Virus record (IMG/VR): IMGVR_UViG_3300010376_000087
Location: 1 to 35,548 of that record
DNA: 35,548 bases
Reading direction: 5' to 3' (one strand)
Source: a virus
Taxonomy: Duplodnaviria > Caudoviricetes
Positions 1-35,543 of the stretch are shown piece by piece (the first letter of the stretch is position 1; each line of letters begins with the position of its first letter). A model generated the notes under the pieces. It was not told the origin of the DNA. It made no database searches and saw nothing but the letters and a program-made list of their open reading frames with translations. A program made the position numbers and the translations under genes.

Positions 1-138
1 CTCGACGACCCACAGCCGGACCGCCTGCTCTCCGCACACGAAGGTTTCCGGCTCCGACATGAACTCGCGGCAACCGGGATGCGGCCCCCACACCTCGATC
101 GTGGCGTCGCACCGAACTTCGACCTTGCTGTCAACCAT
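1..138 (-). CDS. Hypothetical protein, partial (runs off the left edge)
   Basis: ATG at 138 on the minus strand after a GAAAGG SD; open frame MVDSKVEVRCDATIEVWGPHPGC... to position 1; downstream of the leftward promoter at 638-666. Confidence 0.55.
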   Translation of the reverse strand, partial: MVDSKVEVRCDATIEVWGPHPGCREFMSEPETFVCGEQAVRLWVVE

Positions 139-632
139 CACTGCCTTTCCTCTGCTGCTACTGCGTTTCGCAACAGACGACGTAGGCCCAGCCGAAGCTG
201 GGCCTCATCGTCAAACTGCGAACAGCTACCAGCGGCTACGCCGACTCCCAAAACCGCCGAATGTCCAGATCGCTGTACCAGCCGCTGGCCCACCCGGCGG
301 CGACGATTTCGCCGCTGCGTTCCCGGCTTGCTCTCGGTGAGCCGGTCAACCGGGGCGTCTCTGCCAACGCCGCGCATCGTCGTCGGCTACTGGCTGCTGT
401 TGGCCAAGCACCGACATCTCCCTCGTCAGGGCCACGATGACATCTGCCCTGGGGGGGTCCGCTACCGACTACGTGGTGGGTGGTGATGAGGCTGGCTACC
501 CCGGCTACCGGATCCACCAGCGTCTGTCAACCGCTGCCTTCACCGGCACCCTGCCTGCGATTACTGGAACCGCGGACCTGGCCCTTCCGCCCACATGGAG
601 CTTCCGTCTCCCCCTTCCCCTGCTGGGAGCAA
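139..632 (-). ncRNA. Candidate long structured leader or ncRNA
   Basis: No convincing ORF between promoter and ATG 138; stems 184-192/197-205 with cUUCGg loop on the minus strand (extends to 176-212), 229-237/280-288 and 297-303/309-315. Confidence 0.45.
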
Positions 633-637
633 CTCCC

Positions 638-666
638 AGCTTAGTACACTAACTAGCCTAGGTCAA
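638..666 (-). promoter_or_regulatory. Leftward sigma70/SigA-like promoter
   Basis: Minus strand TTGACC (666-661), 17-nt spacer, TAAGCT (643-638). Confidence 0.7.
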
Positions 667-687
667 GTCAGGGACCTCACGCGTCTG

Positions 688-703
688 TGATAGACGTCTA
701 TCA
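688..703. repeat. 16-bp palindrome copy 1 (TGATAGACGTCTATCA)
   Basis: Exact copy, between divergent promoters. Confidence 0.97.
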
Positions 704-775
704 GACTCCACTGCCGCGGCCTGCTCTCTCCCTGCCACCCCACTGCGCTGTCAGAGGATTCAGGTAAGATTCAGG

Positions 776-804
776 TTGACTTCGGCCACTAACTGGGCTA
801 AGCT
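776..804 (+). promoter_or_regulatory. Rightward sigma70/SigA-like promoter, probably leaderless
   Basis: TTGACT (776-781), 17-nt spacer, TAAGCT (799-804); GTG start at 813. Confidence 0.7.
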
Positions 805-812
805 AGCTGGCT

Positions 813-1010
813 GTGCCCAACACTGCACCGAACAAGGACACCTACGGGCTGGTCGCCAACCCGACCCGCCCGCGGACGAAGAACGATCAGGTCGGCGTCA
901 ACATCACCTTGCCGTTCGACCTCCACCGCAAGCTGAAGATCAAGCAGATCCAGCTGGACCTGACCCTCACCGAGGCCATGACGGCAGCGGTCGAGGACTG
1001 GGTCAGGTGA
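813..1010 (+). CDS. Ribbon-helix-helix DNA-binding protein (Arc/ParG-like)
   Basis: 65 aa; VGVNITLP beta strand followed by two helices (DLHRKLKIK, LTEAMTAAVEDW). Confidence 0.7.
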   Translation: MPNTAPNKDTYGLVANPTRPRTKNDQVGVNITLPFDLHRKLKIKQIQLDLTLTEAMTAAVEDWVR

Positions 1011-1198
1011 CCTCAACAGGATCCGACTGCCCCACCGGCAAACGCCAATTCGCCACCAAGGCCGCCGCCATCGGCTTCGCCTGCTCCCTCAGGGGCAGGC
1101 GGGGCCGGTCGGCCAACGCCTTTCGGTGCGACTTCTGCCGCTGTTGGCACGTCGGCAACAAAGGCGGTGACACCTCGAAAGGACGGACCAGACGTTGA
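1007..1198 (+). CDS. Small Cys/His zinc-finger-like phage protein
   Basis: GTGA overlap with upstream stop; CPTGKRQF...FRCDFCRCWH pattern. Confidence 0.65.
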   Translation: MTSTGSDCPTGKRQFATKAAAIGFACSLRGRRGRSANAFRCDFCRCWHVGNKGGDTSKGRTRR

Positions 1199-2127
1199 AC
1201 CCCAAACCTCCTGATCACCTCGGCATCCAGCACCTCGAATGGCTGCTGGTCAGCGAGCTAGAGATGGCGCCCCCACAGTGGGGACGCCCTCTCCGGCCCG
1301 GCGACATCCGTGCGATGGCACACGACTTCGACCCTGACAAGTTGGGAGCCGTGGCGATCTGGGCACGCAAGAACCTACCAGCGGGCCGCGGCAAGTACGT
1401 GATCTGCGACGGCCAACACCGCGTCGCCGCCGTGCGGCTGGCCCTCGGCAACGACCAGCGGGTGCCCTGCCTGATCTACGAGGGACTGACCATGGAGACG
1501 GCTGCCGAACTGTCCCTCGGCCTGCAGGAGCGCCGCAACCTCCACCCGCTGGACAAGCACCGCGCCGCCCTGGCCGCCCACGAAACGCGGGCCGTCGAGG
1601 TCGACAAGGTCATGACCACGCTGGGCCTGCACTTCGTCTACACCGCCAAGGGCACCGACCGGGGCCGCATCTCGGCGGTCGGAGCCTGCTACCAGGTCTG
1701 GTACCGCATGGCCGCCCCCGGCCTGGAGCGGGTGCTGAACATCTGCAGCCAGGCCTGGGACCGGACCTCGGCGGGCTACGCCAGTCCGGTGCTGAAGCTG
1801 GTCATGACCGTGCTGGCCGCCCATGACGGCGAGGTCGACGATGTCCACCTGGGCGAGACGCTCGCTCTGCGGTCGCCCGCCCAGTGGGTGTCCAAGGACG
1901 TCATACCCCGGCGGCCCATCTCCTCGCTGGCCCAGGACGTCATCATCGAGTACAACAAGGCCCGGCGCGGGGCCAGCCGCCTGTCCGAACTGACGCCGTC
2001 GCAGTACGAGGCCGCCGCCAAGCGCAAGCCCTCGCCGACCGTGCGAGGGCCGGTCGAGGGCCGCACCACGGCTACCAAGAGCCGGTCCGGCTCGTCCACC
2101 CGGCCCAACCGGCGGCGACCCAGCTAG
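1195..2127 (+). CDS. ParB/Srx-fold protein, DGQHR type (DUF6551-like)
   Basis: DFDPDKLG...YVICDGQHRVAA...VPCLIYEGLT motifs; helical C-terminal part and basic tail. Confidence 0.75.
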   Translation: MNPKPPDHLGIQHLEWLLVSELEMAPPQWGRPLRPGDIRAMAHDFDPDKLGAVAIWARKNLPAGRGKYVICDGQHRVAAVRLALGNDQRVPCLIYEGLTMETAAELSLGLQERRNLHPLDKHRAALAAHETRAVEVDKVMTTLGLHFVYTAKGTDRGRISAVGACYQVWYRMAAPGLERVLNICSQAWDRTSAGYASPVLKLVMTVLAAHDGEVDDVHLGETLALRSPAQWVSKDVIPRRPISSLAQDVIIEYNKARRGASRLSELTPSQYEAAAKRKPSPTVRGPVEGRTTATKSRSGSSTRPNRRRPS

Positions 2128-2442
2128 GCGCCCACTGCGCTCGGCCATTTTCTAAGGCCCACTGCGCCCTCGCTGCCCAGGCCCAGCTTCCAGCCCTGCG
2201 TCTGCCGAAATGCAGCCCAGGCCTGCGAGGCGAGCCTGGGCAGCCTCTGTACGGCCACCCAGCAGAACGCGGCAGGTCCCGTATTGCGGAACCTTTGGCG
2301 TGCCACCTCTGGTCGTACGTATGTTCAACCTGCCACCTAAGCCTTCCGCAGGACGCGAATGGATGGTTATGAGTAGGGCTGGCATCGCCTCCAAAGCGCA
2401 CCCTGTACGCCATTGTGGGCTGCGCCTGATAGACGTCTATCA
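2128..2442. repeat. ~300-bp diverged intergenic repeat, copy A
   Basis: Shares GCGCCCACTGCGCTC, AAGGCCCACTGCG, a 46-bp core (2298-2343), GGGCTGGCATCGCC and CCCTGTACGCC with 9695-10017; ends in the palindrome. Confidence 0.85.
2427..2442. repeat. 16-bp palindrome copy 2
   Basis: Exact copy, 9 nt upstream of the tRNA-like element. Confidence 0.97.
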
Positions 2443-2451
2443 TCAGGCTGA

Positions 2452-2524
2452 CCGGCCTTAGCTCAATGGACAGAGCGTCGGCCCACGAAGCCGAAGGATC
2501 CTCGTTCAAGTCGGGGAGGCCGGA
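2452..2524 (+). tRNA. tRNA-Arg(ACG)-like gene (C33 instead of U33, no encoded CCA)
   Basis: Acceptor CCGGCCT/AGGCCGG; D arm GCTC-AATGGACA-GAGC; anticodon arm TCGGC-CCACGAA-GCCGA; T arm CCTCG-TTCAAGT-CGGGG; A20 Arg identity element; A15:U48. Confidence 0.85.
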
Positions 2525-2526
2525 CG

Positions 2527-3984
2527 ATGCCTGGCTTCACGTCACCCGCCATCCTGTTCCTCAACAGCTGGGATTCCCCCGAACGGGCCTTCTGCAAACA
2601 GGTCTTCGGCGCCCTGCCCAGCCGCGGCTACACCCGCTACGTCGAGCCGTGCGCGGGCGCGTTCGCCATGCCGATGGTGGCCGAGAACTCGGGCTGGAAG
2701 CCCGCGGCCATGGAGTGCAGCGACACCAGCCTCTACTCGGCCATCGTGGGCGACCTGCTGGCAGGCAACGATCTGGCCGCACTGGACGTGCGGGTCGACG
2801 GCGATCCCGTCGAGCTACCAGAGGAGCCGCTGGACCAGGCCGCCCACCTGCTGTGGGTCCAGCTGCTGTGCCGGACCCAGGCCCGCCCCGAGGTGGACTA
2901 CTGGAAGACGCTGATCGACGACCTCACCGACAACCGCCAGACCCACGTCGACTCCATCACCAAGCGGCTGGCCGGGCTGATGGAACGGCTGGCCGGGCTG
3001 CACTACGAGCCGCTCGATATGTGGGACCACATGGAGCGCGTGGTCAACGACCCCCACACCATCGTCAACTGCAACCCGCCCACCTACTTCAAGGGCTTCG
3101 AGCGGTTCTTCGACACCAAGGACCGCCTGACCTGGAACGTGCCCGACTACCAGTTCTTCGACCCGGCCACCGGCGTCGACCGCCTCGTACGTATGTTCGA
3201 TGGGGCGCCCGCCCTCATGCTGTGCCTGCAGCAGAAGCCGCCGGGCCAGGCCTGCCACCCGACGCCGGTCTTCGCCCGCGACCTCAGCCTGGGCCAGTAC
3301 GTCTACCTCATCAGCAACCGGCCCGACGAGGTCTTCGCCATCACGGGCGGGCCGAAGGTCAGCCGCCACCAGGTCCCCGACCTGACGCCCGGCAACCTGC
3401 CGGTCATGCCCAACGACTACGCCATCACCGCTGGCTCGGTCGTCGAAGCGGTGCCGGTCAAGCAGCCGGTCGCCGATTACTACCGCGCCCTGTGGATGCA
3501 CCGCCTGATCGGCGACCCCGGCGGCAACAACCTGCTGCTACTGGTCGACAAGCAGGTGGCGGGCATCATCGGCTACAGCCTGGCCAGCCTGTCCAAGCCC
3601 TACACGTCCGACAGCCGCTGGTCCAAGCACGCCATCCTGCGCTTCGCCATCGGGGCGCCCCATAAGACCTTGCGCGTAACCCGGCTGGCCACCATGGTCG
3701 CCCTACAGCGGTCGACGCTGGAACTGACCGCCACTCCGGCCACGGCCATGTTCGTCCAGGCCAGCGAGGGCATCGTCACCGTCGAGTACACCCGCCGCGA
3801 CGAGTCAAAAGGCCTGCGCGGGCTGATGACCCGCATCGAGAAGCGCAAGAAGCCACCGGACGGCTTCCAGCTGATCTACGCGGCTGACTGGCAGGACCAC
3901 GACTACGGTCGGGTCCTCACCGACTTTCTGGCCAAGGAGGCGTCGTGGGGCAAAGCCCGAGCAGCGGCAAAGCAACCGGCGTAG
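2527..3984 (+). CDS. DNA modification protein: Dam-like adenine methyltransferase fold plus a C-terminal domain (possibly GNAT/Mom-like)
   Basis: YVEPCAGAFAM resembles SAM-binding motif I; NCNPPTY resembles the (D/N)PPY catalytic motif; extra C-terminal region containing LLLLVDKQVAGIIGY. Confidence 0.65.
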   Translation: MPGFTSPAILFLNSWDSPERAFCKQVFGALPSRGYTRYVEPCAGAFAMPMVAENSGWKPAAMECSDTSLYSAIVGDLLAGNDLAALDVRVDGDPVELPEEPLDQAAHLLWVQLLCRTQARPEVDYWKTLIDDLTDNRQTHVDSITKRLAGLMERLAGLHYEPLDMWDHMERVVNDPHTIVNCNPPTYFKGFERFFDTKDRLTWNVPDYQFFDPATGVDRLVRMFDGAPALMLCLQQKPPGQACHPTPVFARDLSLGQYVYLISNRPDEVFAITGGPKVSRHQVPDLTPGNLPVMPNDYAITAGSVVEAVPVKQPVADYYRALWMHRLIGDPGGNNLLLLVDKQVAGIIGYSLASLSKPYTSDSRWSKHAILRFAIGAPHKTLRVTRLATMVALQRSTLELTATPATAMFVQASEGIVTVEYTRRDESKGLRGLMTRIEKRKKPPDGFQLIYAADWQDHDYGRVLTDFLAKEASWGKARAAAKQPA

Positions 3985-4730
3985 CCGAGCAGCGCATGCA
4001 GATCGCCGACGACCTCTGGATCGAGTGGGTCGACCTCAACGCGCTGCGGGAACAGGACATCAACGCCCAGCAGATGCAGCCACGCCAGATGGACCGCCTG
4101 ACCGAGAACATCCGCCTGCGCGGCCAGATCGAATCGCTGCCTTACTGCTGCCAGACCGAGGCCAACGGCCCCATCTCGGTCATCAGCGGCCACCACCGAG
4201 CCAGAGCCGCCCGCGCCGCCGGACTGACCCGCATCCCGGTCATCATCGACCGCCAGCCCATGACCAAGAGCCGGATCACGGCCAAGCAGATCGCCCACAA
4301 CGAACTGGTCGGGGAGCCGGACCGCGACATCCTGGCTCAGATGGTCGCCAGCCTGGAATCGGTCGACGACATGCTGCTGTCCGGCCTGGACGAGAACTGG
4401 CTGCCCACGCCCGGCCCTGACGACACCCAGCTGCTGATCCCCCACGCTGAGTTCGACTGGCGCCTGGCCACCCTGCTGTTCCTGCCCGGCCAGCTGGACC
4501 GCCTCAACGAACTGGCCGACCTGTGCAGCGGCAGCGACTTCGTGGGCGTGGCCCAGGCCGATCAGTTCGACAGCTTCTCCAAAGCCATGGTCGCCTTCGC
4601 CCGCGTCCGCAACGTCAAGAACCTGGCCGTCGTGGTCGACGTACTGACCCAGATCGCCCTCCGCGAGGTCGACCAGATCAAAGCCGATGCCATCGCCGCC
4701 GCCGCCGCAGCCGCCGCCGCTTCGCCCTGA
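3945..4730 (+). CDS. ParB/Sulfiredoxin N-terminal domain protein
   Basis: AAGGAGG SD before GTG 3945 (alternative ATG 3996); NAQQM...LTENIR...ISVISGHHRARAARAAGL matches the ParB GxxRxxA motif. Confidence 0.8.
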   Translation: MGQSPSSGKATGVAEQRMQIADDLWIEWVDLNALREQDINAQQMQPRQMDRLTENIRLRGQIESLPYCCQTEANGPISVISGHHRARAARAAGLTRIPVIIDRQPMTKSRITAKQIAHNELVGEPDRDILAQMVASLESVDDMLLSGLDENWLPTPGPDDTQLLIPHAEFDWRLATLLFLPGQLDRLNELADLCSGSDFVGVAQADQFDSFSKAMVAFARVRNVKNLAVVVDVLTQIALREVDQIKADAIAAAAAAAAASP

Positions 4731-4777
4731 CCCCGACCTCATCGGGTACATGGAGGGCGAGCCGCTGTGGCGCCGCC

Positions 4778-4793
4778 TGATAGACGTCTATCA
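4778..4793. repeat. 16-bp palindrome copy 3
   Basis: Exact copy, left boundary of the inverted terminase block. Confidence 0.97.
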
Positions 4794-4822
4794 CCGGATC
4801 CGCAGCCTGCTCTCTCTCCCGC

Positions 4823-6283
4823 CTAGAAAATCCGGAACTCGCCCAGAACCACCCGCTCCGCATGATCGAAAGCCCACAGGGCCGTCGTGGCAGCGGTCAG
4901 CGGACTGATCGACACCGTCGACTGGCGGCGGCCCCAGGCCCAGGCGTCACCCAGCGACCGGCGGACCGCAGCTGCCGCAGCTGCGTCGAGCGCCGCGTTG
5001 GGCCGGTAGCGGACCGTCAACTCGTCACCCATGAAGGCCTCCAGCAGCCCGGCGCAGGCGGCCACGTACTCCTTCGTCTTGACCGGCATCAACTCCAGGC
5101 CCAACCGGGTGCAGCGGTCGGCCACGTCCAGGGCCGGACCGGCGGCGTCGTAGCTGATGGCCACCGGCTGCAGCTTGTCCCGCAGCTGCAGCAGCCGCTC
5201 CGGCACCCAGCCCGACGTGGGCCGGTAGTCGGCCACCTCCAGCCGGGCGTTCCCACCGCCGTCCCGCCAGGCCGCCACGATGCAGGCGTCGGTGCGATCC
5301 AGCGCCACGTCGAAGCTGAGCGAGCAGTCCCCGATCGGCGGCAGGGGCTGGTCGGGCGAGGCCGCAGCCATCCAGGCCGTCCGCGGGATGACCCGAGCAG
5401 CTGTGTGAATCCAGCGGTTTCCGTAGGCCCGGCTGAACTCCTCGTTACCCATCTCGTCCAGCGCCGCATACATGGCGGGGGCGAAGATCGTCCGGCCATA
5501 CGCCGGGTGGTACGTGGGCCAGCTGGCCTCCTGCGTCGGGTCCAGGTGGTCGGGGCAACTCCACTCGAAGAACGCCCGGCCCTCCTGGCGGCCTGCTTCT
5601 ACATCTGCCCGTCCTCCCTCGACGCTGCCCAGCCACCACGTAGAGCTATCGTCGCCCGCCGTAGATACCTTCCAGACCTGGGCGTTGGCCTTCGTGGCCT
5701 GGGTCGGGACGATGGCCTGGTCGATAGCCCGCCCTCTGGCCAGGTCGAACACCCAGCTTTCGTCGATGACGACCAGGTCGGTGTGCTTCGAGTGCAGCGC
5801 ATCGGGCTGGGGCGGGAACGGTCGGATCATCCCGCCCGACTGCAGCCACTTGACGTGCTCCGATCCGCTGGCCCGCCGCAGTTCGAGCAGATCGGCCAGC
5901 GGGTCCAGCTGGGGCCAGTGTTCGTTGACCAGCCAGTCGACCGCGTCCTTGCCGGACTGCATTGTGTACCAGACCCGCGCCCGCTTCAGCGTCAGCGCCC
6001 GGTGGTCCATCGTCACCCCGAACAGCCAGGTCTTGCCCGACTGCCGGGGCACGGTCACGTCGACGACCCGGTACACGAAGCGGCCATCGGCGTCGACCTC
6101 CAGGGCCACATCGGCCACCAGCCGCTGCCAGCCCATCAGCGGCAGGCCCAGCACCTGCGCCAGCCGGGCCACTGCCGGACCGTAGGTCTTGCGGCTGGGG
6201 TTGCGCTTGGTCGCCCAACGCGGCGGCGGATATCCGTCGAAATCGGCTGCCTTCGGCGTCAGGGTCGGGGCGATCGCTGCCAT
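4823..6283 (-). CDS. terL: Terminase large subunit
   Basis: LMGWQ (Q motif), VPRQSGKT Walker A, VVIDES Walker B, STAG coupling motif, SFDVA RNase H-like nuclease; start ATG 6283 inferred. Confidence 0.92.
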   Translation of the reverse strand: MAAIAPTLTPKAADFDGYPPPRWATKRNPSRKTYGPAVARLAQVLGLPLMGWQRLVADVALEVDADGRFVYRVVDVTVPRQSGKTWLFGVTMDHRALTLKRARVWYTMQSGKDAVDWLVNEHWPQLDPLADLLELRRASGSEHVKWLQSGGMIRPFPPQPDALHSKHTDLVVIDESWVFDLARGRAIDQAIVPTQATKANAQVWKVSTAGDDSSTWWLGSVEGGRADVEAGRQEGRAFFEWSCPDHLDPTQEASWPTYHPAYGRTIFAPAMYAALDEMGNEEFSRAYGNRWIHTAARVIPRTAWMAAASPDQPLPPIGDCSLSFDVALDRTDACIVAAWRDGGGNARLEVADYRPTSGWVPERLLQLRDKLQPVAISYDAAGPALDVADRCTRLGLELMPVKTKEYVAACAGLLEAFMGDELTVRYRPNAALDAAAAAAVRRSLGDAWAWGRRQSTVSISPLTAATTALWAFDHAERVVLGEFRIF

Positions 6284-6299
6284 TAGCCCGCCGCTCGTT

Positions 6300-6617
6300 T
6301 CCAAACGCCTCCAGAAAGGAGAGTTGGGAGGTTGATGGGTGGTGACGACCGCTGCCTCCAAAAAATGCCTACGCGGCTGCTAGCTGCTGCCACTGCTACC
6401 ACCGCTGCCACTGCCACGCTGCGGCCACCACGCCAACGCCAACGCGAACGCCCACCTCCCATCGATCGAAACGTCTGCCAACTACTACTGCTGTGGGCAG
6501 CACAGCCATCTGCTGTGTGCGGCACCTCCACATCAGCAGCAGCCTCCTCCTCAGCTGTGGGCTGACAGCAACTGCTACAGCCAACAACTACTGCTGCTGA
6601 CCTACCATCCATCCTCA
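6300..6617. other. Low-complexity intergenic region, candidate packaging (cos/pac) region
   Basis: A7 tract at about 6360, CTG/CCA/CTA triplet-like repeats, CAACTACTACTGCTG-like direct repeats; lies between divergent terL and HNH. Confidence 0.35.
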
Positions 6618-6914
6618 GTGCCCAGTCTCGATCCTCGTCTGGCCTCCAAGGAGTGGCAGCGATTACGGAAACTGATCCTGCAACGGGACAACTTCGTATG
6701 TCAGATCCACTCTCATTACTGCCTCGGTCTGGCCACCGAAGTCGACCATATCGACCCACCTCTCGATGGCGGATCGTTCTGGGATCCAGCCAACCTTCGA
6801 GCCAGCTGCAGGCCATGTAACGCTCGCAGAGGCGGCCAATATCGCGCTCAAAGAGCGGAGCGTTCCAGCTTCGGCTATCGGCAGCCGATCGTGCCCATGG
6901 AGACACGTCTGTAA
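6618..6914 (+). CDS. HNH endonuclease (HK97 gp74-like terminase cofactor)
   Basis: WQRLRKLILQRDNFVC...ATEVDHI...NLRASCRPCN. Confidence 0.9.
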   Translation: MPSLDPRLASKEWQRLRKLILQRDNFVCQIHSHYCLGLATEVDHIDPPLDGGSFWDPANLRASCRPCNARRGGQYRAQRAERSSFGYRQPIVPMETRL

Positions 6915-7403
6915 CTAGCTGGGCTGGGCTAGCTCTGCTGCCAGCCGATCCCAGGCGTCCTCTGTCTCTGCCTTGGCCCCCTGCAGTTCGGCCACACTGA
7001 CGATCAGCGTCTGCCGTTCCAGCTTGGCGCCCAGGTCCAGCAGCCGGGCTGCCACCACCAGCGGTATCTCACTGGCCTCCACGCCGTTGAACGAGGCCAG
7101 GCCTTTCATCAGCAGAGCGCGTCCAGCCCGGCGGTGGTTGGCGTGCATCGTTCGGATGGCGTCCAGCCGCTCCTGATCGTCCACGCGATAGCACTCGTCG
7201 TCCCAGGCCTCAGCCCGATCCCACCAGTCCCACTTGGCTGCCCACATCCGGACCGATCGGCTGGTGACGTGCGCCGTGGCCGCCACATCGTCCAGCCGCC
7301 GTTGCGACGGCGCGGTGTCGCGGAGCGTTCTAAACGCCGCGTAGGCCCGACTCGGTTCGCCGTGCTGGCGTTCCCACCGGGCTGGACTGCTGGCCTCAAC
7401 CAT
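6915..7403 (-). CDS. terS: Terminase small subunit (HTH type)
   Basis: WERQHGEPSRAYAAFR...WAAKWDWWDRAEAWD pattern typical of TerS-like proteins; adjacent to HNH/terL; start ATG 7403 inferred. Confidence 0.7.
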   Translation of the reverse strand: MVEASSPARWERQHGEPSRAYAAFRTLRDTAPSQRRLDDVAATAHVTSRSVRMWAAKWDWWDRAEAWDDECYRVDDQERLDAIRTMHANHRRAGRALLMKGLASFNGVEASEIPLVVAARLLDLGAKLERQTLIVSVAELQGAKAETEDAWDRLAAELAQPS

Positions 7404-7446
7404 GACGCTCAGTATGCCAGGCCGACTTCCGCTCATTTCCGCCCCG

Positions 7447-7462
7447 TGATAGACGTCTATCA
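7447..7462. repeat. 16-bp palindrome copy 4
   Basis: Exact copy, right boundary of the inverted terminase block, between divergent genes. Confidence 0.97.
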
Positions 7463-7485
7463 GGCCGCGTGGCAAACTGACTGCC

Positions 7486-7719
7486 ATGCGACTCACTGCG
7501 ACTCAGCGCAACAAGCTGCCGCGGAGCGCCTTCGTCTACCACGGCGGACCTCGGTCCAACTGGCGCTATCCGGTGCCGACCAAAGCCCAGGCTCGCAGGG
7601 CGGGCATCTCCGAAACCCAGCGCAAATCCATCCACGGGGCCGCCGTCAGCTACGGCGCCCGCAAGTCCACCCGCGGATCCAAGGCCACCATCAAGCGGGT
7701 CGTCAGCCGCCGCAAGTAG
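7486..7719 (+). CDS. Small basic protein (DUF6582-like)
   Basis: LTATQRNKLPRSAF...RYPVP motif; very Arg/Lys rich. Confidence 0.6.
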   Translation: MRLTATQRNKLPRSAFVYHGGPRSNWRYPVPTKAQARRAGISETQRKSIHGAAVSYGARKSTRGSKATIKRVVSRRK

Positions 7720-7767
7720 CTCCCTACCTCCGACGCCTTTCATGGCGTACCCTTGCGGGGCGTGACC

Positions 7768-9694: not shown

Positions 9695-10017
9695 GCGCCC
9701 ACTGCGCTCCGCGGTTTTTCAAGGCCCACTGCGACCCGCTGCATAAACCACTGCCGCGGCTGCATTATGCAACCCAGGCCTGCATAGCCAGCCTAGAACG
9801 CCTCTAGATTCCGACCGGGCGCAGGCTTCGTTGGGGAGGAGTAAGCCAGCGTCCGAGCGTGCCACCTCTGGTCGTACGTTTGTTCAACTTGCCACCTAAG
9901 CCATTCCTACTGCGTTACGGGGTGAGTGTGGGTGGGCTGGCATCGCCCCCAAAGCGGTCCCTGTACGCCCTCTATAGCTGCGCCTTCTGCTGCCGGTTGC
10001 GTGATAGACGTCTATCA
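9695..10017. repeat. ~300-bp diverged intergenic repeat, copy B
   Basis: Core 9857-9902 matches 2298-2343 at 44/46 nt; same block order; ends in the palindrome. Confidence 0.85.
10002..10017. repeat. 16-bp palindrome copy 5
   Basis: Exact copy upstream of the capsid gene. Confidence 0.97.
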
Positions 10018-12018: not shown

Positions 12019-12395
12019 TGTCGGCCTGGCCAACGCTCAAGGAGGTCCGCGGCCTGCTGCGCCTGCAGCCGGACGCCACCGAGGACGGGTACATCCAGAC
12101 GGCGTTGGCCGCCGCCATCGACTACGGCATGCGGGCCATGGGCGCCAACGTGACCATCGTCACCAACAGCGACGGCACCCAGACCATCACCGGCACCCCC
12201 ATCTACCCGATCGACACCACCCTGCTACCAGACGGCGCCCACCAGGCCTGCCTGCTGCATGCCGCCCGGCTGTACCGCCGCCGCGACTCCATCGACGGGA
12301 CACTGGGCTTCGGCGATCTGGGCGTGGTCCGGGTCGGTCGTACCGACGCCGACGTCTTTGCCCTCTACGGCACCTACCGAGTCGGCTTCGCGTGA
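12018..12395 (+). CDS. Head-tail adaptor (gp6/gp15-like)
   Basis: WPTLKEVR...ACLLHAARLYRRRDS; synteny. Confidence 0.8.
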   Translation: MSAWPTLKEVRGLLRLQPDATEDGYIQTALAAAIDYGMRAMGANVTIVTNSDGTQTITGTPIYPIDTTLLPDGAHQACLLHAARLYRRRDSIDGTLGFGDLGVVRVGRTDADVFALYGTYRVGFA

Positions 12396-12784: not shown

Positions 12785-12797
12785 CCAGGAGGCAGCC

Positions 12798-13973: not shown

Positions 13974-14352
13974 CGCTGGCTTCCCACCGGCCCCACCGCC
14001 GGAGCGCAACTTCATCGACGACGTCGGTGATAGACGTCTATCACCCGACAGCGACCTGGGGCCGCTGCCCACCGTCATCGAAATCTCCACTGCGTTCGCC
14101 TCCCGCATGCCATCCCAGCGCGTCATCGACCTGCTCAAACACGTCGAGCCGGACCAGAACTTCAGCGAAATCGCCGAGAACCAGCCACCCCGGCTGCTGG
14201 CTTTTCGGGCGCTGCTGCGGGACCACCCCAACCGCGACACCACCTCCCTCTGGCTGCACGCCTACGACTGCGAGGTGGCCCTACAGGACGTGGACCCTAC
14301 GAACGGCAAGTCGCCGACGCCATGGCCTCCTTCTGTGCCTACTACCACATGA
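13966..14352 (+). CDS. Tail assembly chaperone (gpG-like)
   Basis: Immediately upstream of the tape measure gene; ends ...DVDPT... with an overlapping -1 frame ORF. Confidence 0.7.
   Translation: MTDAGFPPAPPPERNFIDDVGDRRLSPDSDLGPLPTVIEISTAFASRMPSQRVIDLLKHVEPDQNFSEIAENQPPRLLAFRALLRDHPNRDTTSLWLHAYDCEVALQDVDPTNGKSPTPWPPSVPTTT
14028..14043. repeat. 16-bp palindrome copy 6 (intragenic)
   Basis: Exact copy, encodes DRRLS in the chaperone N-terminus. Confidence 0.97.
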
Positions 14353-17659: not shown

Positions 17660-18981
17660 CCTGGCCCACCGGACGGGCCGCCGTCCTCGACTTCGAGGCC
17701 GAGGCTGATAGACGTCTATCACCCGACGTACGAGCCGCACCGGGCACCTACCCGGTGCCAGCGGGCCGGGGCCAGTGGCGACTAACGCTGCACAGCCGGG
17801 ACTTCACTGCCAACCAGACGCCCTACCAGACCACCATCGGTGCCCTGCCCGACGCCATCAACCGCAAGCTCATCCGGCAGTGGAACCAACCCAGCCAGCT
17901 GGACTTCACCATCGACGGGCGATCAGCCCAGGCCGCCCTCCTGGCCGAGCTACAGCAGGACGTCATGGCCTGGCGTTGGGATGACACCGCAGGCGTGGAC
18001 CGACCGCTGTTCCGGGGCGTGGTGTCGCAGACCCAGGACGTGCTGACTGCCGACAGCCATCTCATCAACGTGACCGCCCACGACTACGCGGGCATGTTCG
18101 CCCGACGATTTCTCACCAACCCCGCCACCTACACCAACGCCGACCTGGACGACATCGTGGCCGACATCCTCAACAAGGCCAACAACGTGGTGACGACCAG
18201 CGGCACCTCCATGTCCCCCGGTTCCAGCATGCCTCTGACCATCCAGATGGCCAACCCGGACGGCACCACCCGCAGCGCCAAGACCGGCACCCTCTACACC
18301 AACACCTACAACGCCTCCACCGGCCTGACCGACATCGTCAACGAACTGTCCAAGCTGCCCAACGGCTTCGACTTCGACGTGCTGCCCACCGGCCTCAACG
18401 GCACCGCCGACGCCCTGCGGATCTTCGCGCCCTACCAGGGCGTGCAACGTAGCGACCTGGCCCTGGTCTACGGCTCCTCCATCACCGCCCTGACCCGCTC
18501 CGTCGACTCCAGCACCTACGGCAACTACTGGCGGGTCATCGGCAACGCCCAGTCGACCTCACCGGGCACCACCCAGCTGGTAGCCGAAACCTGGAACACC
18601 GACTCCAACAACGTCTCCACCCGGCCCATCGGGCTGTGGATGTCCGCCGACAACGCTCCCTCGCTGACCACTGCGGCCGCCCTCACCGCCCAGGCCAACG
18701 GCGACCTGGCTCTGTACGGCACCCTCATCCCCACCTACCAGCTGACGCTGACGCCCGGCTTCTACTACTACGGCGGCCCCTACATGGGCGACGTGGTACC
18801 ACTGGTCATTCGCTCCGGCCGCCTCAACGTCAACACCAACGTCCGCGTACTGGGCATCACCTACAACATCGGGGACGACGGCGAGGAGGACGTCGACCTG
18901 ACCGTGGGCCAGCCCGGCCGCACCCTCGTCCAGATGATCCAGCAGAGCCAGAGCGACGTCAACGCCCTGGCCCGGAGGTGA
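17656..18981 (+). CDS. Minor tail or baseplate hub protein
   Basis: ATGA overlap; LFRGVV, GFDFDV, MGDVV, VRVLGITY motifs. Confidence 0.7.
   Translation: MTWPTGRAAVLDFEAEADRRLSPDVRAAPGTYPVPAGRGQWRLTLHSRDFTANQTPYQTTIGALPDAINRKLIRQWNQPSQLDFTIDGRSAQAALLAELQQDVMAWRWDDTAGVDRPLFRGVVSQTQDVLTADSHLINVTAHDYAGMFARRFLTNPATYTNADLDDIVADILNKANNVVTTSGTSMSPGSSMPLTIQMANPDGTTRSAKTGTLYTNTYNASTGLTDIVNELSKLPNGFDFDVLPTGLNGTADALRIFAPYQGVQRSDLALVYGSSITALTRSVDSSTYGNYWRVIGNAQSTSPGTTQLVAETWNTDSNNVSTRPIGLWMSADNAPSLTTAAALTAQANGDLALYGTLIPTYQLTLTPGFYYYGGPYMGDVVPLVIRSGRLNVNTNVRVLGITYNIGDDGEEDVDLTVGQPGRTLVQMIQQSQSDVNALARR
17706..17721. repeat. 16-bp palindrome copy 7 (intragenic)
   Basis: Exact copy, encodes DRRLS in the hub N-terminus. 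Confidence 0.97.
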
Positions 18982-20385: not shown

Positions 20386-20401
20386 TGATAGACGTCTATC
20401 A
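20386..20401. repeat. 16-bp palindrome copy 8
   Basis: Exact copy, 1 nt after a stop codon, ahead of the lysis genes. Confidence 0.97.
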
Positions 20402-22121: not shown

Positions 22122-22223
22122 ATGCGCCGCCGCGAGGGCTGGCTACTACTGGCCGCCTTCATCGTCGTCACGGCCTGCCTGCTGGCCTTCTGCATGGGCG
22201 TTCTGCTGGCCGAACTGCTCTGA
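22122..22223 (+). CDS. 33-aa membrane peptide
   Basis: MRRREGWLLLAAFIVVTACLLAFCMGVLLAELL. Confidence 0.55.
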   Translation: MRRREGWLLLAAFIVVTACLLAFCMGVLLAELL

Positions 22224-22224
22224 G

Positions 22225-22541
22225 GCGCTCCGCGGATTTCTAAGGCCTACTGCGCCTGGGCTGCCTCAACCACAGCCGCCGCCACATGGTGCAATACAGG
22301 CAGCCTGGGCGACCTCCATACGCCTCTGAACAGCCACCGGGCGCAGGCCTCATTGGGTGGGGGATGGCTGACCGATTGACGTGCCACCTGGCGGGGGATT
22401 TCTAGCGGCGTTGCCTCTATTGCCAATCAATCTGCGGGAATGGGTGAGTGTGGGGAGTTCCGCCGACGCCCCGAAGCGATCCCTGTACGCCCTTTAACCA
22501 CTGCGGTTTCTGGCTCCGACCACACTGATAGACGTCTATCA
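22225..22541. repeat. ~300-bp diverged intergenic repeat, copy C (most diverged)
   Basis: GCGCTCCGCGG, TAAGGCCTACTGCG, ACCGGGCGCAGGC, GTGCCACCT, GGGTGAGTGTGGG and CCCTGTACGCCCT blocks shared with copies A/B; ends in the palindrome. Confidence 0.75.
22526..22541. repeat. 16-bp palindrome copy 9
   Basis: Exact copy, 6 nt upstream of a TTGACA -35 box. Confidence 0.97.
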
Positions 22542-23634: not shown

Positions 23635-25007
23635 CCCAGACCTCCATCCCGCTGACCGCCATCAACGCCAGCCCCGACCCCACCCGCCGCGACCAGTGGG
23701 GCCGCTACCTCATCGTGCCGCCCACGGGTGGACCGCCGGTCGGCTACACCCGCGTCACCACCGTGGCCAAGACGCTGGACAACGGCGGCGGGCTGGCCGA
23801 CTGGAAGGCCGCCATGACCGCCAGCGGCATCATCATGCGCCGGGGCCTGCGGGCCGAATGGGAGGCGCTGCTGGCCGTCCACGGCGACCCCTGGTACGAC
23901 GGCGACGCCAGCAAGGCCGAGTGCAAACGGCTGGTCAGCGAGTGCGCCGCCGTGGGCGGGGCCAACGACCGGCGCCAGATGGGCAGCAGCCTCCACACCA
24001 TCACCGCCCTCGTCGACCTGGGCAAGGCCCCGCAGCACCTGACCAGCGAGACGGAGCGCGACGTCGACGCCTACGTCAACGGCCTGGCCGCCGCCCACAT
24101 CAGCGTGGTCCCCGGCGCCGTCGAACTGGTCACGGCTCTGGACAGCTACCAGGTAGCCGGGACCTTCGACCGGCTGGCCATCGTGCCCGGCTTCGACCTG
24201 CCGCTGATCGCCGACCTCAAGACCGGCGCCAACCTGGAGTACAGCTTCCAGTCCATCGCCGTCCAGCTGGCGGGCTACAGCCGGGGCGAGCGGCTCTACC
24301 AGCAGGGCGCAGCCAAGGACGGCAGCCAGGACCACAGCCAGCCCATGCCTGCCGTCGACCAGGACTGGGGGCTGGTCCTCTGGCTCAAGGCGGGCGAGGG
24401 CGTCTTCGAGCTATACCTGGTCGATCTGACCGAGGGCTGGCACGCGTTCCAGCAGAGCATGTGGGCGCGCAGCTGGGCACGGTCCAACCCGCAGCGGCTG
24501 TACGCCCCGGCCAGCAACAACCAGGGCATGACCATCCCCGTCTCCAGCGACGACCTCACCGCCCAGCTGGAGGCCAGCCTGGCCACCCATCCCAGCCACC
24601 CACAGCCTGTGGACAACGGCCATCCACAGCCTGTGGACGTGACAGACGTCTATCAGCAGCCCGTCCCGCTGGACGCCGACACCGTCAAGACGCCCGGCTT
24701 CTCCCCGGCGGCGCAGGACCTGGAGACAGTCCACGACGTCCGCAACTGGCTGCAGCAACGCATCGACGACATCGGCCAGCACGCCCAGGCCCGACAGGCC
24801 CTCGGCAAGCTGTGGCCGGACAACATCCCCACGCTGCGTGCGTCCACCAACCACACAGCCGAACAGCTTGGCGCCATCGAGCGACTGCTCGACGACGTCG
24901 AGAGGCGCTACGAACTCCCGTTCGGAGAGCCTTCCCCCGGAGCCGCCAAGGTCCTCGACCTGTTCCCCGGCTCCACCATCCAACCAACGAACAAGGAGCC
25001 TGCGTGA
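23631..25007 (+). CDS. PD-(D/E)XK (Cas4/RecB-like) exonuclease
   Basis: YTRVTT, GSSLH, AGTFDRL, IADLKTG, QLAGY motifs. Confidence 0.85.
   Translation: MTQTSIPLTAINASPDPTRRDQWGRYLIVPPTGGPPVGYTRVTTVAKTLDNGGGLADWKAAMTASGIIMRRGLRAEWEALLAVHGDPWYDGDASKAECKRLVSECAAVGGANDRRQMGSSLHTITALVDLGKAPQHLTSETERDVDAYVNGLAAAHISVVPGAVELVTALDSYQVAGTFDRLAIVPGFDLPLIADLKTGANLEYSFQSIAVQLAGYSRGERLYQQGAAKDGSQDHSQPMPAVDQDWGLVLWLKAGEGVFELYLVDLTEGWHAFQQSMWARSWARSNPQRLYAPASNNQGMTIPVSSDDLTAQLEASLATHPSHPQPVDNGHPQPVDVTDVYQQPVPLDADTVKTPGFSPAAQDLETVHDVRNWLQQRIDDIGQHAQARQALGKLWPDNIPTLRASTNHTAEQLGAIERLLDDVERRYELPFGEPSPGAAKVLDLFPGSTIQPTNKEPA
24600..24640. repeat. Tandem CCACAGCCTGTGGAC repeats containing DnaA-box-like sites
   Basis: TGTGGACAA at 24608-24616 is the reverse complement of TTGTCCACA; imperfect boxes at 24620-24628 and 24632-24640. 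Confidence 0.55.
24640..24655. repeat. 16-bp palindrome copy 10 (1 mismatch, TGACAGACGTCTATCA; intragenic)
   Basis: In the exonuclease linker, encodes TDVYQ. Confidence 0.9.
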
Positions 25008-26005: not shown

Positions 26006-28024
26006 ATGGACCCTACCCCACTGATCCCATTGCCCAGCGGCACGGCTGACTTCCTGACGGCCATCTGGGGCGACGGACCCCACAGCATCTGCTGGTTCGA
26101 CGCCAGCGGGTTCCACTTCGACATCGTCACCCACCCCGGCCACATCCTCGAAAAGCTGAGCCAGCTGCAGACCGTCGACGTCTGGGTCGGCGCCCATCCC
26201 CTCAAGGCCCGACCACTGCGGGGCCGGGGCGACCGCGACGACGTAGCCCAGGTCGTGGCCATCCCGGCAGACCTTGACTGGCAGCACCCGACCCGCCGCA
26301 CCGACGACCCACTCCCGACCGAGGCCGAGGTGCGTGACGGCCTGGCCAAGCTCGGCCACGACGTGCAGCCCAACCTGGTCGTCCACTCCGGTCACGGCCT
26401 CCAGCCTTACTGGGTCCTGGCCCATCCCGTCGAGCCGGACGAGGCCGAGGCGCTGATCGACCAGCTGAATACCGCCCTCGCTCGCGTCGGACTGACCAAC
26501 GGCCGCAGCGACCTGCCCAGCATTCTGCGGCTGCCCGGCACTAACAACCACAAGGGCGGCGACAGCGTGCCGGTCACGGTCGAGCGCTACCTGCCCGACC
26601 ACCGCTACACAGCTGCCTGGCTCCGCAAGCACCTGCCACAGGCGACCGGAAGCGGGCGGAAGGGCGGCGGCACCAAGCACCACACCGGCAGCGTGACCCA
26701 CGACCAGCAGCTGCTGGTCAACCACATCGTCACCGTCTACCACGGCCACTCTCCAGCCGTGTGGCGCGATGGGAGCGTCCACATCGTGCGCCCCGGTAAG
26801 CCTGCTGACGGGACCAGCAGCCTGAGCGTGATCGTGGGCGAAGACGGCGACGCCATCGCCACCAACTTCTCCGACCACTGGCCCGGCCTGCAGAAGGACC
26901 AGAGCTACATGCTGGGACCGGATGGCCAGCTGCACCACCCCAGCGACCCGCTCGCCCAGGTCACCATCAACGTCAATCAGCAAACGCCAGCAGTGATAGA
27001 CGTCTATCAACCTGACGCAGCAGACATCTACATCAACTGGCAGGAGTTCGCAAAGCGAGACACCGTCGCCCACCAATGGCTAGTCGAGGACTTCTGGCCT
27101 CTCGGCCGAGCCATGGCACTGTGGGCCAACGCCAAGGAGGGCAAGAGCGAACTCGCCCTCTGGTGCGTCGGCAACCTGGCCATGGGCATCCATCCCTGGA
27201 CCGGCGACCCCGTCCCACCCATCGACATCGCCTACTTCGACTTCGAGATGACCGACGACGACCTGGACGAACGGCTCAGCGACTTCGGCTGGGATCTGGA
27301 CCGGCTGGACCGGCTGCACTACGCCCTGCTGCCACCGATCTACCCGCTCAACACCGAGGACGGCGGCAAACAGCTGCTGAGCTACATCGAGAGCGTGAAC
27401 GCCAAGGCCGTGGTCCTCGACACCTTCGCCCGCGTCGTGACCGGAGACGAGAACGACGCCCGCACCGTCGACGACTTCTACCGCCACACCGGCATCCGAC
27501 TCAAGCAACAGCGGATCGGCTACCTGCGCCTGGACCATGGCGGTCACGACAAGTCCAAGGGCCACCCCCGTGGCACCTCAGCCAAACTCGGGGACGTCGA
27601 CGTCATCTGGCGCCAGCGCCGCCACCCGTCCGGCAATGTCCAGCTGACTTGTGGCAACGCCAGCCGCCTGGCCTGGGTCGGACCCGAACTGAACGTCGAC
27701 CGCAACGTCAACGTCGTCACAGGCGAGGTCAGCTACTCCATGCCCATCCGCTTCGGCTGGCCTGCAGGCACCGCCGAGAAGGCCGCCGACCTCACCACGG
27801 CGGGCGTCCCGCTGGACGCCGGGCGACCCGCCGCCATAGCCGCCCTCAAGGCCGCTGGCCTCAAGCCTGGCCGCTGGGCCGTCCTCTCGGCCGCCCTCAA
27901 GTTCCGCCGCGAGCAATCGGGCACAGTTGCCGGGCCCACCCCCAACCCACCTGTGCCGCCCTCTGACCAGGGCAACTCCGGCACAGGTCCCGTCGATCTG
28001 TACTCTGACCAGCCAAAACAGTGA
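26006..28024 (+). CDS. Primase-helicase: RepB-like AEP primase plus RecA/AAA_25 helicase
   Basis: GAAAGGAGG SD; ADLD, VHSGHGLQPYW, ILRLPGTNNHK; ANAKEGKS Walker A, DFEM, VVLDTF Walker B, LDH, RGTSA. Confidence 0.88.
   Translation: MDPTPLIPLPSGTADFLTAIWGDGPHSICWFDASGFHFDIVTHPGHILEKLSQLQTVDVWVGAHPLKARPLRGRGDRDDVAQVVAIPADLDWQHPTRRTDDPLPTEAEVRDGLAKLGHDVQPNLVVHSGHGLQPYWVLAHPVEPDEAEALIDQLNTALARVGLTNGRSDLPSILRLPGTNNHKGGDSVPVTVERYLPDHRYTAAWLRKHLPQATGSGRKGGGTKHHTGSVTHDQQLLVNHIVTVYHGHSPAVWRDGSVHIVRPGKPADGTSSLSVIVGEDGDAIATNFSDHWPGLQKDQSYMLGPDGQLHHPSDPLAQVTINVNQQTPAVIDVYQPDAADIYINWQEFAKRDTVAHQWLVEDFWPLGRAMALWANAKEGKSELALWCVGNLAMGIHPWTGDPVPPIDIAYFDFEMTDDDLDERLSDFGWDLDRLDRLHYALLPPIYPLNTEDGGKQLLSYIESVNAKAVVLDTFARVVTGDENDARTVDDFYRHTGIRLKQQRIGYLRLDHGGHDKSKGHPRGTSAKLGDVDVIWRQRRHPSGNVQLTCGNASRLAWVGPELNVDRNVNVVTGEVSYSMPIRFGWPAGTAEKAADLTTAGVPLDAGRPAAIAALKAAGLKPGRWAVLSAALKFRREQSGTVAGPTPNPPVPPSDQGNSGTGPVDLYSDQPKQ
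26994..27009. repeat. 16-bp palindrome copy 11 (intragenic)
   Basis: Exact copy, encodes IDVYQ in the linker before the helicase domain. Confidence 0.97.
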
Positions 28025-29510: not shown

Positions 29511-29526
29511 TGACAGACATCTATCA
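29511..29526. repeat. 16-bp palindrome copy 12 (2 mismatches, TGACAGACATCTATCA)
   Basis: Supplies the TGA stop of the minus-strand gene ending at 29524. Confidence 0.85.
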
Positions 29527-31134: not shown

Positions 31135-31150
31135 TGATAGACGTCTATCA
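31135..31150. repeat. 16-bp palindrome copy 13
   Basis: Exact copy; supplies the TGA stop of the DUF488-like gene. Confidence 0.97.
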
Positions 31151-33607: not shown

Positions 33608-33623
33608 TGATAGACGTCTATCA
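33608..33623. repeat. 16-bp palindrome copy 14
   Basis: Exact copy; supplies the TGA stop of the AAA+ gene. Confidence 0.97.
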
Positions 33624-35527: not shown

Positions 35528-35543
35528 TGATAGACGTCTATCA
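35528..35543. repeat. 16-bp palindrome copy 15
   Basis: Exact copy, 5 nt from the window end. Confidence 0.97.

Follow-up and report, generated by a model that had tools for sequence, protein, structure and literature searches.

The window, meaning the whole stretch of 35,548 nucleotides that was analysed, carries on its + strand a rightward cassette of four ORFs. These encode an RHH protein (813..1010), a ParB-fold protein of the DUF6551 family (1195..2127), a predicted DNA-modifying enzyme in which a Dam fold is fused to a GNAT domain (2527..3984) and a second ParB-fold protein, ParB2 (3945..4730; its start may be 3996), whose ORF overlaps that of the enzyme. A terminase large subunit follows on the - strand (4823..6283). 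This cassette had been described by a sequence-only reading, and its coordinates and strand were confirmed in the sequence, as were three palindromes lying inside or abutting it: 688..703, upstream of the RHH gene, 2427..2442, just before a tRNA gene, and 4778..4793, between ParB2 and the terminase. The same reading reported neither ParA nor integrase, and searches with PF13614 (ParA) and PF00589 (tyrosine integrase) were indeed negative in the window record, which is rated 100% complete; ParA was found in 0/5 family records, the window record included, and in 14/14 control rings.

Four features had been overlooked: the GNAT domain, the tRNA gene (2452-2524), a 63-codon ORF and a repeat. The ORF (1007..1198, +) encodes a Cys-containing protein of 63 residues that matches phrog_14788 (E 4e-4) and is 79% identical to its counterpart in locus L001. 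The repeat, of about 310 bp and ending in a palindrome, lies at 2128..2442, with further diverged copies at 9695-10017 and 22216-22541.

The protein at 1195..2127 does contain the DGQHR motif by which it had been named, but its family is DUF6551 (PF20188, 56 bits, cut-off 26.8); the DndB/DGQHR profile TIGR03187 fell below its cut-off (21.8 vs 58.85 bits). For phage fusions of DUF6551, binding of CTP or ATP is described (PMC12704722). As a DUF6551 ParB occurs in only 2/119 enzyme loci, the protein is accessory and outside the conserved module. The stretch holds two systems that are probably separate, a tRNA/enzyme/ParB unit and an RHH/palindrome system.

The tRNA, enzyme and ParB unit

Both halves of the enzyme cleared the curated Pfam cut-offs. 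Residues 8-284 matched DAM-like-phage1 (PF22555; E 5.5e-66, 223 bits, cut-off 27) and residues 304-471 matched GNAT-phage-like (PF22559; E 4.7e-30, 105 bits, cut-off 27). A structural model (pLDDT 91) resembled Dam (2ore; Z 13.0, rmsd 4.5, 199 residues aligned) and Mom (8bv8; Z 9.2, rmsd 3.6, 144 aligned), other GNATs tying with the latter. No sequence kinship was found between the GNAT domain and Mu Mom, either by hhalign with a 38-row profile (probability 0.07%) or as a Mom family match in Pfam. The comparison yielded no residue-level alignment to the catalytic R111, S124 and R151 of Mom or to its HTH-like insertion. Among 38 homologues, E40, G44 and D66 of the Dam fold are invariant, as are H325, R383, R386, T418, E426, K428, R431 and Y451 of the GNAT domain.

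The EPCAG and NPPTY motifs on which a methyltransferase fold had been proposed are present, and the Dam fold stands. The conserved catalytic motif IV of Dam-type N6-adenine methylases is (D/N)PPY. The 38 homologues depart from it: motif IV carries an additional T (NPPTY), and the residue at the first position is N in 28, A in 7, C in 2 and Q in 1. Because the Asn is kept in just 28/38, and because the GNAT domain and the tRNA had been left out of account, methylation is probably the wrong chemistry for this enzyme.

ParB2 consists of a nucleotide-binding domain, a linker and C-terminal helices. Its model resembles KorB (8qa8; Z 10.3, rmsd 2.5, 93 aligned) and its motifs EQDxNA, SGHHR and HN are invariant in 38 homologues; the model gave no match to a DNA-binding HTH, its middle being of low confidence. 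Contact with the enzyme is predicted. The modelled complex scored 0.78, against 0.00 for the best of three controls, a mark reached by 116/157 solved complexes and 2/215 mismatched pairs, although this calibration is rough here (own alignments, three chains). The runs share at least 86% of contacts, with a partner pLDDT of at least 86, and the interface is centred on ParB2 residues 138-171. In the model a ParB dimer would wrap the enzyme, with the linker at the place of the HTH in a canonical ParB.

A ParB gene follows the enzyme in 116/119 loci, the three exceptions stopping at contig ends, and the next long ORF encodes TerL in 33/36 non-redundant loci, the TerLs coming from several unrelated PHROGs. 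Together with the domain make-up, these counts support the earlier suggestion of a DNA-modification module linked to the terminase.

The tRNA gene at 2452..2524 (+) is tRNA-Arg(ACG)-like. It forms a good cloverleaf (Rfam tRNA, 57.9 bits), ends 2 nt ahead of the enzyme ATG and has C1-G72, A20 and a non-canonical C33; CCA is not encoded. A tRNA gene lies within 2.5 kb upstream of the enzyme in 81/99 loci (ARAGORN default, redundant set) and in 0/90, 0/82 and 0/78 control segments (0/250 in all). In the non-redundant set it was found at 28/38 loci by default and at 32/38 by an anchored search; the latter detected none at 6/38, four of which have more than 2 kb of upstream sequence. The tRNA, the Dam-fold/GNAT enzyme and the ParB form a conserved three-gene unit beside the terminase, whose order is kept across phyla.

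The anticodons among the relatives are of Arg, Lys, Pro and Gly types, and all 90 default calls start with CC regardless of anticodon. Anticodon class mostly follows enzyme clade, a match that stands for few independent events, as kin share labels; an exception is L078, where a Lys-clade enzyme has an Arg-like tRNA 1.9 kb upstream. Judged by their sequences these tRNAs look poor for decoding: 28/32 were flagged for C33 or A33, U37, an anticodon loop of 6 or 24 nt (6/32) or a T-stem defect. The Lys-type tRNAs combine C1-G72 with T-stem bulges, the T loop of both Gly-type tRNAs contains TGC, and the L050 tRNA looks canonical. The window tRNA is predicted to be a dedicated aminoacyl donor.

The RHH protein and the dispersed palindromes

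The earlier RHH assignment was borne out. A 7-row profile matched RHH structures only (all six PDB matches), the best being SvtR (2kel, E 5.5e-7), with weaker matches to Omega, ParG and ORF56; Pfam 56B_RHH was found in 6/7 members at a loose threshold.

The 16-bp palindrome TGATAGACGTCTATCA occurs 15 times in the window, with 13 copies perfect and none expected (100 shuffles). Beyond the three sites at the cassette, copies end the second and third 310-bp repeats (10002..10017 and 22526..22541), another lies upstream of 34681-35433 (35528..35543), and sequence matches were found at 7447..7462, 20386..20401, 29511..29526 (two mismatches), 31135..31150 and 33608..33623. Four of the 15 fall inside genes: a predicted gene (14028..14043), a predicted tail gene (17706..17721), an exonuclease gene (24640..24655, one mismatch) and a primase/helicase gene (26994..27009, with about 1 kb of the gene on each side). 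The mean spacing is 2489 bp (CV 0.26), and spacing as even was seen in 0/20,000 random placements and 0/20,000 gene-junction placements.

The palindrome is common to a phage family, where its occurrence tracks the RHH gene and not the enzyme. Arrays of at least 10 sites were present in 6/7 family records with both RHH and ParB vs 0/3 with only one detected (10 records), although the palindrome search itself had supplied four of these six array records, and the six records found solely via another gene give 2/3 vs 0/3. G408 has the RHH gene and no sites, G407 has ParB only and no sites, and G004, a partial record, has three variant sites. In L171 and L175 no palindrome lies immediately upstream of the RHH gene. 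The pattern suggests that the RHH protein is the likely binder of the palindromes and that 688..703 is likely its autoregulatory site.

Loading of the ParBs at the palindromes in the manner of parS had also been proposed. This is not supported: homologous cassettes generally occur without dispersed palindromes, such arrays being absent from 28/31 non-redundant enzyme+ParB loci of at least 12 kb (at most three copies of any spaced inverted repeat), DUF6551 is rare (1/5 family records tested), the ParB2 model, of low confidence in its middle, showed no HTH, and the palindrome follows the RHH gene. A window-type RHH was missing from 116/119 enzyme loci.

Proposed mechanism and alternatives

The reading favoured here, at somewhat better than even chances, is that the three-gene unit moves an amino acid, in the window probably arginine, from its own tRNA to a base of the phage DNA, the RHH protein and palindromes being separate. 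It is based on analogy with Mu Mom. A host synthetase would charge the phage tRNA, which would be withheld from the ribosome. The Dam fold would grip DNA and flip out the target base, and may still use SAM; the GNAT domain would then load the exocyclic amine with the aminoacyl group, a step for which Mu Mom uses glycine. The substrate would be DNA, rather than tRNA or protein, and the base probably adenine. ParB would activate the enzyme or hold it on double-stranded DNA with no specific site needed, as for the ParBs of the T-dioxygenases, and the bulky mark would stop restriction. The RHH protein would use the palindromes as operators, an autoregulatory site having expanded into a genome-wide array.

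In an integrated self-marking scheme, a revised form of the earlier proposal, RHH bound at the even sites would replace the missing HTH and load or hold a ParB-enzyme clamp, so that phage DNA alone is marked. The even spacing, the four sites retained within genes and the joint occurrence of RHH and ParB with arrays are consistent with this, as is the lack of enrichment of the site in host-like genomes (4/401 Actinomycetota, single copies; a control pattern in 5). The scheme is nevertheless doubtful, given how many enzyme loci lack an array or a window-type RHH and how many array records were palindrome-derived. In addition, array phages draw their ParBs from several distant subfamilies, G005 has both genes yet just three variant sites, the spacing in G003 is not even (CV 0.68, P 0.17), and ParB-dependent dioxygenases modify E. 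coli and lambda DNA site-free (PMC13229309).

An unusual SAM-dependent DNA methylase carrying an acyl-CoA GNAT, beside an ordinary phage tRNA that aids translation or evades host anticodon nucleases, is an unlikely reading of the locus. Arg and Lys tRNAs are frequent targets of such nucleases. The Dam fold with its three invariant residues, the NCBI/UniRef name ('putative antirestriction adenine methyltransferase') and a SAM synthetase within 10 kb of the enzyme in 43/119 loci (8/38 non-redundant) all point towards methylation, but the inserted T and the replacement of the motif IV Asn by Ala, Cys or Gln in 10/38 point away from it. Moreover, normal decoding would be impossible for the 6/32 tRNAs whose loops are 6 or 24 nt long, and an acceptor CC/GG common to Arg, Lys and Pro types, with a fixed place before the enzyme, is unexpected for a translation supplement.

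A fuller combination, in which RHH every 2.5 kb loads the HTH-less ParB clamp with its enzyme, arginine from the private, non-decoding tRNA makes a cationic base on phage DNA only, and sister phages use this address system for Gly-tRNA or ABC-ATPase/GNAT enzymes, is improbable as a whole.

That the tRNA is instead a cis-regulatory leader, a processing signal or a substrate of the GNAT, and not a donor, is more improbable still. Only 2-3 nt separate tRNA and start codon in L001, L050 and the window, and the paired 3' strand of the window tRNA holds the likely ribosome-binding site, GGAGG; other clades, however, have 17-1872 nt at this place and often encode the CCA end, and decoding elements decay while amino-acid identity elements persist. 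Least credible by far are parS-type centromeres for plasmid-prophage segregation, to which one or other ParB-fold protein would bind: the 16-bp dyad symmetry, the negative tyrosine-integrase search in the window record, the invariant NTP motifs of ParB2 and nucleotide binding by DUF6551 fusions (PMC12704722) would suit them, but no ParA was found in the five records, two array phages encode integrases, 4/5 records lack DUF6551 and ParB2 relatives are present without arrays.

Relation to known systems

If the proposed aminoacyl transfer is correct, a widespread enzyme family with its own Arg-, Lys-, Pro- or Gly-anticodon tRNA predicts several undescribed DNA bases, some positively charged; phage tRNA genes would gain a non-translational reason, and a second enzyme class would come under orphan-ParB activation. 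Two cultured phages allow a direct test, since Microbacterium phage ValentiniPuff has an unannotated tRNA ahead of the enzyme and so does Faecalibacterium phage FP_Brigit; a table in the ValentiniPuff paper appears to give 0 tRNAs.

Mom modifies DNA using Gly-tRNA (PMC13219725) and, in the parts of the literature compared here, Mu Mom alone is described as modifying DNA via a charged tRNA, host glycyl-tRNA. The window enzyme shares with it (8bv8, PMC13219725) the GNAT fold and, by prediction, amino-acid transfer from a charged tRNA onto DNA bases and an anti-restriction role. Unlike Mom, to which it has no relation in sequence, its GNAT is joined to a Dam fold, has a ParB partner and is served by its own atypical tRNA. 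Since Mom runs on an ordinary host tRNA, a private tRNA is not demanded by the precedent; the donor is host Gly-tRNA only for Mom, and Arg, Lys, Pro or Gly is predicted for the window family.

HTH-less phage ParBs activate a partner enzyme (PMC13229309). In the T-dioxygenase pair 5mYOX176/ParB176 the ParB is built of an NBD, two helices, a linker and a C-terminal domain and lacks an HTH, as ParB2 appears to; its enzyme, a post-replicative modifier near the terminase, is modelled at the place of the DNA-binding domain of ParB (PMC13229309). The enzyme class is different, the tRNA is found only here, and activation is shown there and predicted here. The ParB-terminase (ParB-Tls) loci (PMC4738411) share the PF22555/PF22559 family and the terminase-adjoining gene order; in the text seen from that report methylases are predicted and a tRNA is unmentioned, whereas the window unit has one.

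Atypical dedicated tRNAs also feed the Fem aminoacyl transferases of Staphylococcus, whose non-proteogenic tRNA-Gly have a TGC T loop (PMC7826273), as do the Gly-type members here. The tRNAs of the present family differ in being phage-encoded, with DNA the predicted acceptor, and mostly specify other amino acids with C1-G72.

The 17-bp palindromes of Cluster O mycobacteriophages, whose function is unexplained, and the Cluster A stoperators (PMC4351075) resemble the window sites in their number within one genome, in dyad form and in lying both between and inside genes. A candidate binder for an evenly spaced palindrome bears on such dispersed palindromes of actinophages. The window sites differ from both in their very even spacing and in a candidate RHH binder that tracks them, and from the asymmetric, oriented stoperators (PMC4351075) in being, at 13/15, perfect palindromes.

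The conserved neighbourhood of the enzyme

The ORF at 2527–3984 (+) was found to encode two domains, DAM-like-phage1 (PF22555) and GNAT-phage-like (PF22559), a fusion overlooked by the sequence-only reading. Its model (pLDDT 91) matched E. coli Dam (Z 13.0, rmsd 4.5, 199 aligned) and also GNATs, Mu Mom being one of the tied matches (Z 9.2, rmsd 3.6, 144 aligned). Searching PDB sequences with a profile of the enzyme yielded no significant match, and residue-level mapping onto Mom gave no alignment. Across 38 homologues the SAM-site residues of the Dam fold and eight residues of the GNAT domain are invariant, and the motif IV Asn is kept in 28. SAM synthetase lies near 8 of the 38 non-redundant enzyme loci, so a SAM step may persist in the action of the enzyme. 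Six homologues (P0008, P0029, P0032, P0045, P0067 and P0069) are 720–770 aa long, one named as a Hint-domain protein and one with PF14528, which suggests intein insertions.

Enzyme loci were gathered from other records (118, or 119 with the window; one source search contributed the best 80 of 141). ParB2 (3945–4730, +) or its counterpart directly follows the enzyme in 116 of the 119, the three misses stopping at contig ends; in 33 of 36 non-redundant loci the long ORF that comes next encodes the terminase large subunit. By default ARAGORN calls, a tRNA gene lies within 2.5 kb upstream of the enzyme in 81 of the 99 loci with enough sequence, compared with 0/90, 0/82 and 0/78 in controls; at a relaxed threshold these values became 93/99 and 4/90, 1/82 and 0/78. 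This 99-locus set is redundant, one tRNA being common to 26 loci. Among the 38 non-redundant loci a tRNA was found in 28 by default call and in 32 by anchored search, and two of the six anchored-search misses have less than 500 nt of upstream sequence. Calls made with -ps80 were discarded, as control segments scored too (58/90).

The sequence-only reading had treated a ribbon-helix-helix (RHH) protein (813–1010, +), a ParB-like protein (1195–2127, +), the enzyme and ParB2 as one cassette. All four ORFs are where it placed them and, in line with its failure to recognise ParA or an integrase, neither a tyrosine integrase nor ParA was found in the window. However, the RHH gene is present in only 3/119 enzyme loci and the ParB-like gene in 2/119. 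This implies that the conserved unit consists of tRNA, enzyme, ParB and terminase, and that the four-gene cassette is a local juxtaposition. The supposed DGQHR protein at 1195–2127 belongs instead to DUF6551, its score for the DndB/DGQHR family lying under the cut-off. The unit is also present, with a tRNA that is not annotated, in two cultured phages: in ValentiniPuff the tRNA has a 6-nt anticodon loop and lies at the genome end, which precedes gene 1 if the genome is circularly permuted, and in FP_Brigit it is of Lys type.

The window record itself (35.5 kb, 68% GC) is a tailed phage rated complete. Its large and small terminase genes (4823–7496) lie on the minus strand and the portal and capsid genes on the other; a plus-strand HNH gene separates the two terminase genes. 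One DNA assembly covers 1–8519 with 4 differences and may be the source of the window; no RNA dataset containing the window sequence was listed. At another enzyme locus, L127, a second ORF of the same enzyme family (phrog_7858, 12131–13342) comes right after the ParB gene, suggesting that one ParB is shared by two enzymes.

Features of the associated tRNAs

The tRNA-Arg(ACG) gene of the window (2452–2524, +), also overlooked previously, stops 2 nt before the enzyme ATG and scores 57.9 bits with Rfam. Rfam run over the whole window at gathering level failed to show it, so a blank there is weak. All 90 default ARAGORN calls begin with CC, pairing with a GG end, whatever the anticodon; this claim rests on the unanchored calls, as the CC-anchored search is circular for C1–G72. 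Anticodons among the 32 non-redundant tRNAs include Lys (16), Arg (7) and Pro (3). Anticodon class largely tracks the enzyme tree, with exceptions such as that at L078, and as kin share labels the independent events are few.

U33 and a purine at 37 are near-invariant in tRNAs, a rule with which the Rfam consensus line agrees. At least one oddity is present in 28 of the 32: position 33 other than U, a pyrimidine at 37, an abnormal loop or a faulty T stem; the anticodon loop is of 6 nt in five and 24 nt in one. In the window tRNA position 33 is C, and the arginine identity elements A20 and C35 are retained. Two loci of a distant subfamily with both Pfam domains, L020 and L025, have Gly tRNAs whose T loop contains TGC; a search for further Gly-type loci returned the query alone. 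At three other loci (L130, 9887–9977; L136; L140) the enzyme is preceded by tRNA-like genes whose anticodon loop contains an inserted hairpin.

The palindrome array and its candidate binder

The palindrome TGATAGACGTCTATCA occurs 15 times in the window, 13 copies being perfect, where none is expected by chance. Three of these, at 688, 2427 and 4778, bear out the palindromes claimed beside the cassette. The mean spacing is 2489 bp (CV 0.26), an evenness equalled in 0/20,000 random and 0/20,000 gene-junction placements. Of the sites, eleven fall between genes and four within predicted genes, one of the latter being in the primase gene, ~1 kb from both of its ends. The 16-mer is also found across a family of related phages with capsid proteins only ~30% identical. 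Spacing is even in G002 (19 sites, CV 0.44), G406 (10, CV 0.33), G409 (12, CV 0.42) and G410 (13, CV 0.51), and in G003 (12, CV 0.68, P 0.17) the evenness is not significant. Lineage variants (L168, L176, L171, L035) either carry symmetric paired changes at the third position or are degenerate in the central 4 bp, which points to two 6-bp half-sites being recognised. A host-factor site was discarded as an explanation, the palindrome not being enriched in 401 Actinomycetota genomes.

Three diverged non-coding repeats (~310 bp; column identity 69%) end in the palindrome and precede the tRNA operon (2128–2442), the major capsid gene (9695–10017) and an HTH gene (22216–22541), with a counterpart in L001 (4770–5089). 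A structured RNA was rejected for them, there being no Rfam match and an unfavourable covariation term (4 sequences).

A profile of the protein encoded at 813–1010 matches RHH structures only. An exact or variant palindrome lies within ~200 nt upstream of the RHH gene in 9 of 12 RHH loci; L004 has a weak one and L171 and L175 none. The palindrome itself was the route to many of these loci; of the five reached through another gene, 3/5 have the site. Metagenome matches to RHH have it in 3/3, one a duplicate (116 loci were kept after removal of those that match the window itself). In L176, where the RHH gene is displaced by 6 kb from its usual place, a palindrome is beside it there. Array phages carry differing cassettes (Arg-type, Gly-type, ParB with ABC-ATPase/GNAT, lone ParB) and two have integrases. 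Among 31 non-redundant enzyme loci of at least 12 kb, seven shorter ones being left out, arrays are confined to the window, L001 and L050. Judged by gene neighbourhood, then, the palindrome is a follower of the RHH gene rather than of the enzyme. The core of the palindrome probably resembles known RHH operator boxes; by eye, no covariation was apparent between the strand residues of RHH and the variants of the site.

The sequence-only reading had ParB clamps loaded at the palindromes and marking phage DNA, and had named in advance, as counting against this, cassettes generally without dispersed palindromes; 28 of the 31 enzyme loci are of that kind. It is unlikely that RHH at the palindromes loads ParB for such marking. 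In favour of it, arrays of at least 10 sites occur in 6/7 records with both RHH and ParB and in 0/3 with only one detected; in the unbiased subset this falls to 2/3 and 0/3, one of the three being 62% complete.

A promoter scan gave no sigma-70 match; by eye, possible divergent promoters (TTGACN, 17 nt, TAAGCT) flank the palindrome at 688, at 640–669 (−) and 776–804 (+). The gene at 34681–35433 (−) forms, with those for a MoxR-type ATPase (33621–34547) and a vWA protein (31618–33588), a family-wide three-gene unit divergent from RHH. Its product, with a weak LmbU-like match only, was rejected as the palindrome binder: it has no fold assignment, and G407 and G408 carry the gene without sites. 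In the sister phages L004 (1138–2835), L170, L171 and L176, an alternative modification cassette pairs a ParB with an ABC-ATPase/GNAT fusion. L175, the one complete family member without palindromes, has a long GC-rich tandem repeat (~1700–2000) upstream of RHH.

ParB2, predicted chemistry and known systems

Complex modelling of the enzyme with ParB2, as proposed in the sequence-only reading, supports binding. The score was 0.78 for the enzyme with a ParB2 dimer and 0.00 for the best control; the former mark is reached by 116/157 solved complexes and 2/215 mismatched pairs, counts that are only rough for this job. The runs share at least 86% of contacts, with partner pLDDT of at least 86. The tightest predicted contacts to the enzyme come from ParB2 residues 140–168, the place of the HTH in a canonical ParB. 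No HTH chain was among the fold matches listed for this middle part, a low-confidence region in which absence excludes nothing.

We suggest that the dedicated tRNA would donate its aminoacyl group to a flipped base, in the window probably arginine onto adenine. Mom is reported to move glycine from Gly-tRNA onto adenine N6 in dsDNA (PMC13219725). Counting against the suggested transfer, the enzyme shows no relation to Mom by sequence, a tRNA is missing from some loci, and several of the tRNAs that are present appear canonical.

ParB–terminase modification loci have been published as predictions (PMC4738411; PMC7824862), orphan ParBs are described as common in phages (PMC12704722) and dispersed palindromes of unexplained function are described in Cluster O phages (PMC4351075). 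No link of the enzyme family to tRNA, nor a description of this palindrome, was found in open full text at the level of listings and passages. The TGC T loop of the Gly-type tRNAs is shared with the non-proteogenic tRNA-Gly of Staphylococcus, for which it is given as a mark (PMC7826273). Phage ParBs with an NBD and a C-terminal domain, without a DNA-binding domain, are reported to act as activators of their cognate T-dioxygenases, with DNA of E. coli and of lambda as substrates, and this activation survived NTP-site mutations (PMC13229309). The predicted outline of ParB2 is like theirs: an NBD (18–125), two helices, a low-confidence linker and C-terminal helices.
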